Below are positions 34,901 through 37,900 of a stretch of DNA of 64,000 bases, in pieces. The stretch lies in NCBI RefSeq assembly GCF_017348835.2, contig NZ_CP071375.1; one strand, written 5' to 3'. Made by a program: the position numbers. Within the stretch, counting starts at the first letter, position 1, and every line of letters begins with the position of its first letter. This stretch comes from Escherichia coli. GTDB taxonomy: Bacteria > Pseudomonadota > Gammaproteobacteria > Enterobacterales > Enterobacteriaceae.

Positions 34901-37900
34901 GGCGAAGCTCCGCCTCAGGTGACCGATGGAGTGTGGTTAAGGTAGCGGTAAAAGCGTGTTACCGCAATGTTCTCTCTTCTCTGGAATATGATACACCGCC
35001 GAGAAATCATCACCTTAACCTCTGATAATCGTCATATACCGGACAAGACTAGTGGATTTCAGCATGCATTATATGAAGTGGATTTATCCACGCCGCTTAC
35101 GCAATCAAATGATCCTGATGGCAATCCTGATGGTCATTGTCCCAACGCTTACTATTGGTTATATCGTAGAAACGGAAGGACGTTCAGCAGTCTTATCTGA
35201 AAAAGAGAAAAAACTTTCTGCCGTGGTCAACCTGCTTAATCAGGCACTAGGCGATCGCTATGATCTCTACATCGACTTACCACGTGAGGAGCGTATCCGC
35301 GCATTAAATGCAGAACTTGCCCCCATTACCGAAAATATCACTCACGCCTTCCCTGGCATCGGCGCTGGTTATTACAACAAAACGCTGGATGCGATAATCA
35401 CCTACGCGCCTTCAGCGCTATATCAGAATAATGTGGGCGTTACCATTGCCGCAGATCACCCTGGTCGCGAAGTCATGCGTACAAATACCCCTTTGGTTTA
35501 TTCAGGCAGGCAGGTGCGCGGCGATATTTTGAATTCAATGATCCCCATTGAGCGTAATGGTGAAATTCTCGGCTATATCTGGGCCAATGAATTAACCGAA
35601 GATATTCGCCGCCAGGCCTGGAAAATGGATGTGAGGATTATCATTGTGCTCACCGCCGGTTTGCTGATAAGCCTGCTGTTGATTGTCCTTTTCTCCCGTC
35701 GCCTGAGCGCCAATATTGATATCATCACCGATGGCCTCTCGACTCTGGCACAAAATATTCCCACTCGATTACCACAATTGCCCGGTGAAATGGGGCAAAT
35801 CAGTCAGAGTGTTAACAACCTCGCCCAGGCACTGCGTGAAACGCGGACACTTAACGATCTGATTATTGAAAACGCTGCCGATGGCGTCATTGCCATTGAC
35901 CGCCAGGGTGATGTAACCACCATGAACCCGGCAGCAGAAGTCATCACTGGCTATCAACGTCATGAACTGGTAGGGCAGCCTTACTCCATGTTGTTCGACA
36001 ATACTCAGTTCTACAGTCCAGTACTGGATACGCTGGAACATGGCACCGAACATGTAGCGCTGGAGATCAGTTTTCCAGGCCGTGACCGCACCATTGAACT
36101 CAGTGTCACTACCAGTCGTATTCATAACACGCATGGTGAAATGATAGGTGCTTTGGTTATTTTCTCTGATTTAACTGCCCGCAAAGAAACCCAGCGCCGC
36201 ATGGCGCAAGCAGAACGCCTCGCCACACTGGGTGAGCTGATGGCTGGCGTCGCGCATGAAGTACGTAATCCGCTAACGGCTATTCGTGGTTATGTACAGA
36301 TCTTGCGCCAACAAACCAGCGACCTAATACATCAGGAATATCTGTCCGTAGTACTCAAAGAAATCGATTCAATTAACAAAGTTATTCAGCAATTGCTCGA
36401 ATTTTCACGTCCACGCCACAGTCAATGGCAACAAGTCAGTCTCAATGCATTGGTTGAAGAAACTCTGGTACTGGTACAAACGCGACTTGCAGGCAATGGT
36501 AAAAGAAGGCACCTTCCGTGAAGATCTCTTTTATCGCCTTAACGTTATTCATTTAATACTGCCGCCTCTGCGCGATCGCCGGGAAGATATTTCCCTGTTA
36601 GCTAATCACTTTTTGCAAAAATTCAGTAGTGAGAATCAGCGCGATATTATCGACATCGATCCGATGGCAATGTCACTGCTTACCGCCTGGTCATGGCCGG
36701 GAAATATTCGAGAGCTTTCCAACGTTATTGAACGCGCCGTCGTGATGAATTCAGGCCCGATCATTTTTTCAGAGGATCTTCCGCCGCAGATTCGTCAGCC
36801 AGTCTGTAATGCTGGCGAGGTAAAAACAGCCCCTGTCGGAGAGCGTAATTTAAAAGAGGAAATTAAACGCGTCGAAAAACGCATCATTATGGAAGTGCTG
36901 GAACAACAAGAAGGAAACCGAACCCGCACTGCTTTAATGCTGGGCATCAGTCGCCGTGCATTGATGTATAAACTCCAGGAATACGGTATCGATCCGGCGG
37001 ATGTATAACACCAAAACTTGCTATGCAGAAATTTGCACAGTGCGCAATTTTCTGCATAGCAGCTCATTCTCCTTATGAATCCCCATCTAATTTATCCTTT
37101 TCTATTCAATTAGTTAAATAAAAACATCCAATAATCTCATTCTGGCACTCCCCTTGCTATTCCCTGACTGTACCCACAACGGTGTATGCAAGAGGGATAA
37201 AAAATGAAAACAAAATTGATGACATTACAAGACGCCACCGGCTTCTTTCGTGACGGCATGACCATCATGGTGGGCGGATTTATGGGGATTGGCACTCCAT
37301 CCCGCCTGGTTGAAGCATTACTGGAATCTGGTGTTCGCGACCTGACATTGATAGCCAATGATACCGCGTTTGTTGATACCGGCATCGGTCCGCTCATCGT
37401 CAATGGTCGAGTCCGCAAAGTGATTGCTTCACATATCGGCACCAACCCGGAAACAGGTCGGCGCATGATATCTGGTGAGATGGACGTCGTTCTGGTGCCG
37501 CAAGGTACGCTAATCGAGCAAATTCGCTGTGGTGGAGCTGGACTTGGTGGTTTTCTCACCCCAACGGGTGTCGGCACCGTCGTAGAGGAAGGCAAACAGA
37601 CACTGACACTCGACGGTAAAACCTGGCTGCTCGAACGCCCACTGCGCGCCGACCTGGCGCTAATTCGCGCTCATCGTTGCGACACACTTGGCAACCTGAC
37701 CTATCAACTTAGCGCCCGCAACTTTAACCCCCTGATAGCCCTTGCGGCTGATATCACGCTGGTAGAGCCAGATGAACTTGTCGAAACCGGCGAGCTGCAA
37801 CCTGACCATATTGTCACCCCTGGTGCCGTTATCGACCACATCATCGTTTCACAGGAGAGCAAATAATGGATGCGAAACAACGTATTGCGCGCCGTGTGGC

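Follow-up and report, generated by a model that had tools for sequence, protein, structure and literature searches.

Does the window, a 64-kb stretch of the Escherichia coli chromosome, still encode a working AtoS-AtoC two-component system? If it does not, how was the system lost, and what does the loss predict for the atoDAEB operon that AtoC activates? From the comparisons described below, we consider it very probable that a recent spontaneous deletion of 1,264 bp, which arose in one porcine clone, has left an intact atoDAEB operon uninducible.

The window matched the chromosome of E. coli PE164 (NZ_CP114128.1, reverse strand), with no differences across the 14.4 kb compared. PE164, an O108 aEPEC/ExPEC hybrid, was isolated from a piglet in Nanjing; the paper that describes it is silent on ato, acetoacetate and short-chain fatty acids. 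As the reference for the deletion we used F2_81, a strain from an Australian pig that is the closest complete genome with intact atoSC; K-12 MG1655 served as the second reference. Outside the gap, a base-by-base comparison of the window with F2_81 over 14.4 kb gave 2 substitutions. The gene order of the window is the same as that of the K-12 ato locus (rcsC / atoS atoC / atoDAEB / yfaP), and the retained DNA is 98.6 to 99.2% identical to that of K-12.

Several other features of the window were recorded. A degraded lambdoid prophage (~48093 to 63255) adjoins one full-length and one partial DUF1175 (yfaT-like) gene. It contains the type III secretion effector genes nleA (~48784 to 50025) and nleG (~50719 to 51366), an IS3-family element (~51683 to 52896), several frameshifted or truncated phage genes and an integrase gene (~62185 to 63255); a prophage with nleA and nleG fits the aEPEC character of the strain. 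At ~43555 to 48069 there is a gene of the alpha-2-macroglobulin family (yfaS-like) with an internal stop that is also found in K-12 MG1655, the gene being intact in other E. coli. Rfam placed the small RNA MicF at 28104 to 28197, upstream of ompC, two arrays of naRNA4/REP-type elements at 19777 to 20085 and 31858 to 32048, and a tRNA at 2766 to 2839 that is annotated as tRNA-Pro in the record; all of these are expected in this region of the E. coli chromosome.

Deletion endpoints and the remnants of atoS and atoC

The interval between rcsC and atoD (34897 to 37204) is filled by two overlapping ORFs. The features on this side of the locus are as follows.

rcsC, ending at 34897, minus strand: borders the atoS side of the locus
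35064..36521, plus strand: atoS pseudogene, within an ORF at 35052..36521 and with its annotated ATG at 35064 (Pfam, motif positions, PGAP)
36480..36482, plus strand: deletion junction, with a 1-nt ambiguity, the C at 36481 being assignable to either side (comparison with F2_81 and K-12)
36482..37008, plus strand: atoC pseudogene, AtoC residues 287/288 to 461 (Pfam, motif mapping, PGAP, called ORF)

Forward and reverse base-by-base comparison with F2_81 revealed that exactly 1,264 bp are absent, in one gap, and K-12 MG1655 gave the same result. The deletion extends from atoS codon 473, the first base of which is kept, to atoC codon 287, which supplies the first atoC bases that are kept; it takes out a quarter of atoS, at the 3' end, and 62% of atoC, at the 5' end. 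The left breakpoint falls after window position 36480/36481. Past the junction, atoC lies in frame +1 with respect to atoS, and a stop soon follows, which rules out an in-frame AtoS-AtoC fusion protein.

The first ORF encodes native AtoS residues 1 to 472 (...EETLVLVQT), then 12 out-of-frame residues, RLAGNGKRRHLP, and ends at a TGA stop. In intact AtoS (608 aa) Pfam finds HAMP (209-259), PAS (265-369), HisKA (389-451) and HATPase_c (496-600) domains. The remnant keeps the transmembrane region and the first three of these at the same positions, including the H-box HEVRNP (398-403) with the phospho-accepting H398. HATPase_c was not found in the remnant by Pfam, and motif mapping placed the N, G1 and G2 boxes (506-568) entirely inside the deletion.

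The second ORF, which ends at 37008, reads ...KRDLQAMVKEGTFREDLFYRLNV... to the C terminus of AtoC. Intact AtoC (461 aa) consists of Response_reg (7-115), Sigma54_activat (145-311), AAA_lid_14 (317-393) and HTH_8 (415-454) domains by Pfam. What remains is the end of the AAA+ core, with the R-finger motif FREDLFYRL, the AAA+ lid, with the sensor II motif NIREL, and the Fis-type helix-turn-helix. In Pfam terms, the remnant keeps the last 26 positions of Sigma54_activat (142-167 of 168), AAA_lid_14 and HTH_8 (E = 7.5e-15). The same search did not find Response_reg, the receiver domain, in the remnant. Motif mapping places Walker A (GESGTGK, 173-179), GAFTGA (220-225), Walker B (241-245) and sensor I (283-286) within the deleted part, and with the first three of these the remnant has lost the motifs that define the AAA+ sigma-54 interaction domain. 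AtoC residues 288 to 461 are the same as in K-12. Gene callers report a 170-aa ORF starting at the ATG at 36496; given this start codon, the AtoC fragment might be translated. In RefSeq both remnants are already annotated by PGAP as pseudogenes, atoS as "incomplete; missing C-terminus" and atoC as "missing N-terminus."

These results bear out the structural reading that the first-pass annotation gave of this DNA. It had described one internal deletion of roughly 1.2 kb, which measures exactly 1,264 bp against both F2_81 and K-12, and an out-of-frame jump from atoS into the 3' part of atoC, which is seen both in the ORFs and in the alignment. It listed the AtoS ATPase domain, the AtoC receiver and most of the AtoC AAA+ domain as lost, and Pfam and motif mapping found the same. 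Aligning the region with K-12 atoS-atoC, as it had proposed, gave the endpoints and the AACCGC microhomology described below, and full-length genes were not found in the window. One detail needs correction: the last AtoS stretch had been given as ...LVLVQTR, which holds up to T472, the last native residue, but the R is already out of frame.

Origin, rarity and age of the junction

Both ancestral breakpoints (left, ACAAAC/CGCCGG; right, CACCAAC/CGCGAC) lie within a 6-bp direct repeat, AACCGC, the two copies of which are 1,263 bp apart. The junction that is seen, ACAAACGCGAC, is the product of a clean repeat-to-repeat deletion minus one C. In a simulation that drew breakpoint pairs at random from atoSC and tolerated shifts of at most 1 nt, a repeat of at least 6 bp touched both breakpoints in ~0.5% of the pairs (P ~0.005); thus, the presence of AACCGC at the breakpoints is probably not coincidental. 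The likely course is a one-step chromosomal deletion in the PE164 lineage in which atoS and atoC were lost together. From the breakpoint sequences, its origin is probably microhomology-associated illegitimate recombination or slipped mispairing at AACCGC, with an imprecise join. This mechanism is short of proven because an exact deletion between the repeats would have kept one more base at the junction. A deletion mediated by an insertion sequence or a prophage was ruled out, as the flanks abut directly and the junction holds neither foreign DNA nor a scar; a laboratory-engineered deletion was ruled out by the lack of an FRT or cassette scar and by the origin of PE164 as a field isolate.

The same base pairs could also have been lost in two steps, by a clean 1,263-bp deletion from AACCGC to AACCGC, leaving an intermediate junction that would read ACAAACCGCGACTTG, plus the loss or miscall of one C of the CC. 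The repeat copies at both ancestral breakpoints and a junction equal to the expected product minus one C are what such a history would leave, but a single imprecise join fits the sequence equally well, and a base-call error is hard to reconcile with the same junction sequence in three assemblies (see below). We regard the two-step origin as possible but doubtful. The functional outcome would be the same as for the one-step imprecise join that we prefer, because deletions of 1,263 and 1,264 bp both leave atoC out of frame.

Of 5,426 complete E. coli genomes, PE164 itself is the only one in which a 201-bp probe spanning the junction was fully covered; in 3,926 other complete genomes the two halves of the probe match at separate places. 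The exact 485-aa truncated AtoS, frameshifted tail included, is recorded on 11 contigs. A lookup of the 489-aa GTG-start form found no record, so that the ATG-start 485-aa product alone is recorded. Two of the 11 loci, GCA_032490275.1 and SRR19633709 (a Logan assembly), were compared with the window; both have the same junction, the former without any mismatch to the window and the latter with 1 nt changed. Because the same junction recurs in independent assemblies, the deletion is real and not an assembly artefact. The allele marks a small clone, the PE164 lineage.

The deletion is also recent, because the remnants show no secondary decay: relative to F2_81 there are 0 DNA differences in the atoS remnant, and the atoC remnant has 1 synonymous single-nucleotide polymorphism, at S383 (window 36771). 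The AtoS remnant (window 35064 to 36479) differs from K-12 by M107T, L160I and P421L. Since the DNA of F2_81 is identical there, these residues reflect polymorphism of the lineage rather than decay after the deletion.

Loss of ato across E. coli

The whole atoS-atoB block was matched in 3,931 of the 5,426 complete E. coli genomes. In ~1,495 of them (~27%), rcsC is present but there is no match to the atoSC-atoDAEB block (about 7.5 kb). In CFSAN064035, the single ato-less genome that was inspected, rcsC directly adjoins yfaP, and similarity to the window stops at about 34973 to 34976.

Damage confined to the regulators is also found. The 170-aa AtoC C-terminal ORF is on many more contigs than the 1,264-bp deletion because atoC has been hit independently in other strains that keep atoDAEB intact downstream. 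Natural atoC alleles elsewhere include two nonsense mutations (Q273* and Q290*), three distinct 1-nt deletions (nt 707, 811 and 677), some of which may be assembly errors, and a 1.3-kb IS3-family insertion in a strain with a K-12-identical background. In a seawater isolate an IS1 element replaces everything from atoS codon 139 to within yfaQ. Three further atoC-region loci look like error-rich assemblies. Other natural ato-null E. coli strains thus resemble PE164 in having lost the activator, with or without the operon, but they did so by different molecular events, and the 1,264-bp junction was found in the PE164 lineage only. E. coli can do without the ato locus, which it has lost repeatedly.

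This pattern bears on whether removal of AtoSC was selected in the pathogen lineage, for example via motility, polyamine antizyme activity or cPHB. Deletion of atoSC in K-12 causes motility and other pleiotropic defects (PMC3118216), and the repeated, independent loss of ato regulators in E. coli would be in keeping with selection. However, repeated loss is no less to be expected for an accessory locus that the species can do without and that ~27% of genomes lack, and the PE164 allele is restricted to a very small clone. An atoS point mutation that arose during laboratory evolution on lactate was not fixed and had a fitness effect of about 2% (PMC2784333); for these reasons we discarded it as support for adaptive loss. 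Overall, we consider an adaptive loss improbable and favor neutral decay.

Regulatory region and predicted silence of atoDAEB

Downstream of the atoC remnant the window contains the following features.

37019..37061, no strand assigned: AtoC upstream activating sequence, a 40-bp palindrome found by inverted-repeat search; intact
37143..37158, plus strand: sigma-54 (-24/-12) promoter of atoDAEB, TGGCACTCCCCTTGCT; intact, with the same element in F2_81 and K-12
37204-37866, plus strand: atoD, 220 aa, full length; 0 residues differ from K-12
37866-38516, plus strand: atoA, 216 aa, full length; 1 residue differs from K-12
38513-39835, plus strand: atoE, 440 aa, full length; 0 residues differ from K-12
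39866-41050, plus strand: atoB, 394 aa, full length; 5 residues differ from K-12

The palindrome is made up of two inverted 20-bp half-sites, at 37020 to 37039 and 37041 to 37060. Their sequences, GCTATGCAGAAATTTGCACA and, on the opposite strand, GCTATGCAGAAAATTGCGCA, are the ChIP-verified AtoC sites given in PMC3118216. Downstream of it, the motif TGGCAC-N5-TTGCW has its sole match in the 64-kb window at 37143 to 37158 (TGGCAC-N5-TTGCT), where 0.13 matches are expected by chance. All four structural genes, which encode the alpha and beta subunits of the CoA-transferase, the short-chain fatty acid transporter and thiolase II, are full length with no internal stops, and the protein (WP) accessions of AtoD, AtoA, AtoE and AtoB are the same in the window and in F2_81. 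The first-pass annotation had called the palindrome (as 37019 to 37062), a canonical -24/-12 promoter and four intact structural genes, and each call stands, with the inverted repeat now placed at 37019 to 37061 and its half-sites exactly as published. Compared with K-12 and its NtrC-family, sigma-54-dependent AtoS-AtoC system, PE164 has lost 1,264 bp and both regulatory genes are pseudogenes, but it shares the AtoC half-sites and the -24/-12 element with K-12 unchanged, and its structural proteins match those of K-12 fully or almost fully.

The atoC-atoD spacer (37009 to 37203, 195 bp) is the same as in F2_81 but differs from K-12 at 10 positions (5%), versus 0.2 to 2% in the flanking ato genes. 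Most of the differences lie between the AtoC palindrome and the -24/-12 promoter, at spacer positions 69 to 117, and they could affect DNA bending or IHF binding. The spacer allele predates the deletion, because F2_81, which has intact atoSC, has the same allele.

Sigma-54 holoenzyme forms closed complexes, and formation of the open complex needs ATP hydrolysis by an AAA+ enhancer-binding protein, which touches sigma-54 via its GAFTGA loop. No activator of atoDAEB besides AtoC is known. By their motif content, both remnants are predicted to be unable to catalyze their reactions: the AtoS remnant, lacking the ATP-binding catalytic domain, would be a nonworking kinase, and the AtoC remnant, lacking the phospho-receiver, the ATPase core and the sigma-54-contacting GAFTGA loop, would be a nonworking activator. 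Because sigma-54 promoters need an enhancer-binding ATPase and AtoC is the sole known activator of this one, atoDAEB is predicted to be uninducible and PE164-lineage strains are predicted to be unable to use acetoacetate for growth. Too little time for decay would explain why the structural genes and cis elements are still intact.

The predicted silence of atoDAEB is well founded and in line with published work. In PMC8743547, AtoC appears as the RpoN enhancer-binding protein assigned to acetoacetate catabolism, and the RpoN holoenzyme bound the atoC-atoD spacer in vitro. In vivo, AtoC binds at the palindrome, binding is stimulated by acetoacetate, and AtoC activates the sigma-54-dependent atoDAEB operon (PMC3118216). 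In BW28878, a K-12 strain with an engineered atoSC deletion (Oshima et al. 2002, via PMC3118216), there is neither AtoC binding nor short-chain fatty acid catabolism (PMC3118216). BW28878 has likewise lost both regulators and kept atoDAEB, and it is an experimental model for the phenotype expected of the PE164 lineage. PE164 differs from it in that its deletion is natural and partial, fragments comprising the AtoS sensor/DHp and the AtoC lid-HTH remain, and the background is that of a porcine pathogen.

Expression of atoDAEB that does not depend on AtoC, with the operon kept under selection, would account for the perfectly intact genes and cis elements. It could come from read-through from the atoS promoter, from another sigma-54 enhancer-binding protein acting from solution, or from an unrecognized promoter. 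No intrinsic terminator was predicted on the plus strand between the atoC stop and atoD. But recency explains the intactness fully, since even the defunct gene fragments carry at most one change each; promoter prediction gave no sigma-70-like candidate in the atoC-atoD spacer; and K-12 atoSC and atoC mutants are Ato-negative. We judge AtoC-independent expression to be quite improbable. It is highly improbable that atoDAEB is still expressed and useful via read-through or a noncognate sigma-54 activator, with the 170-aa lid-HTH fragment possibly sitting on the palindrome. Taken jointly, read-through, another enhancer-binding protein, and the fragment made from the ATG at 36496 acting on the palindrome are given only a very slight chance. 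If true, this would be a natural rewiring of a sigma-54 operon after loss of its dedicated enhancer-binding protein.

It is barely credible that the deletion is absent from the organism and is the product of misassembly or sequencing error: the PE164 paper describes Illumina reads only, assembled with Unicycler, and the junction is in one complete genome only, but the region is single copy with no collapsible repeat, and the same truncated protein and junction are in GCA_032490275.1 and the SRR19633709 Logan assembly, with 11 contigs recorded.

A recent, spontaneous 1,264-bp deletion that silences an intact atoDAEB operon remains our preferred reading. It matters little beyond strain annotation: with the pseudogenes flagged in the public RefSeq annotation, the clone small and ato loss commonplace, the PE164 deletion is ordinary rather than notable, and because the ato locus is dispensable and repeatedly lost in E. 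coli, it opens no new question. For the lineage itself, the porcine O108 aEPEC/ExPEC hybrid isolates are predicted to be Ato-negative, with no growth on acetoacetate and none of the side phenotypes that depend on AtoSC, and the unique junction is a handy PCR marker of the clone. For the ato system, the locus offers a clean, datable case, associated with a microhomology deletion, of a two-component system lost before its target operon has suffered any damage.
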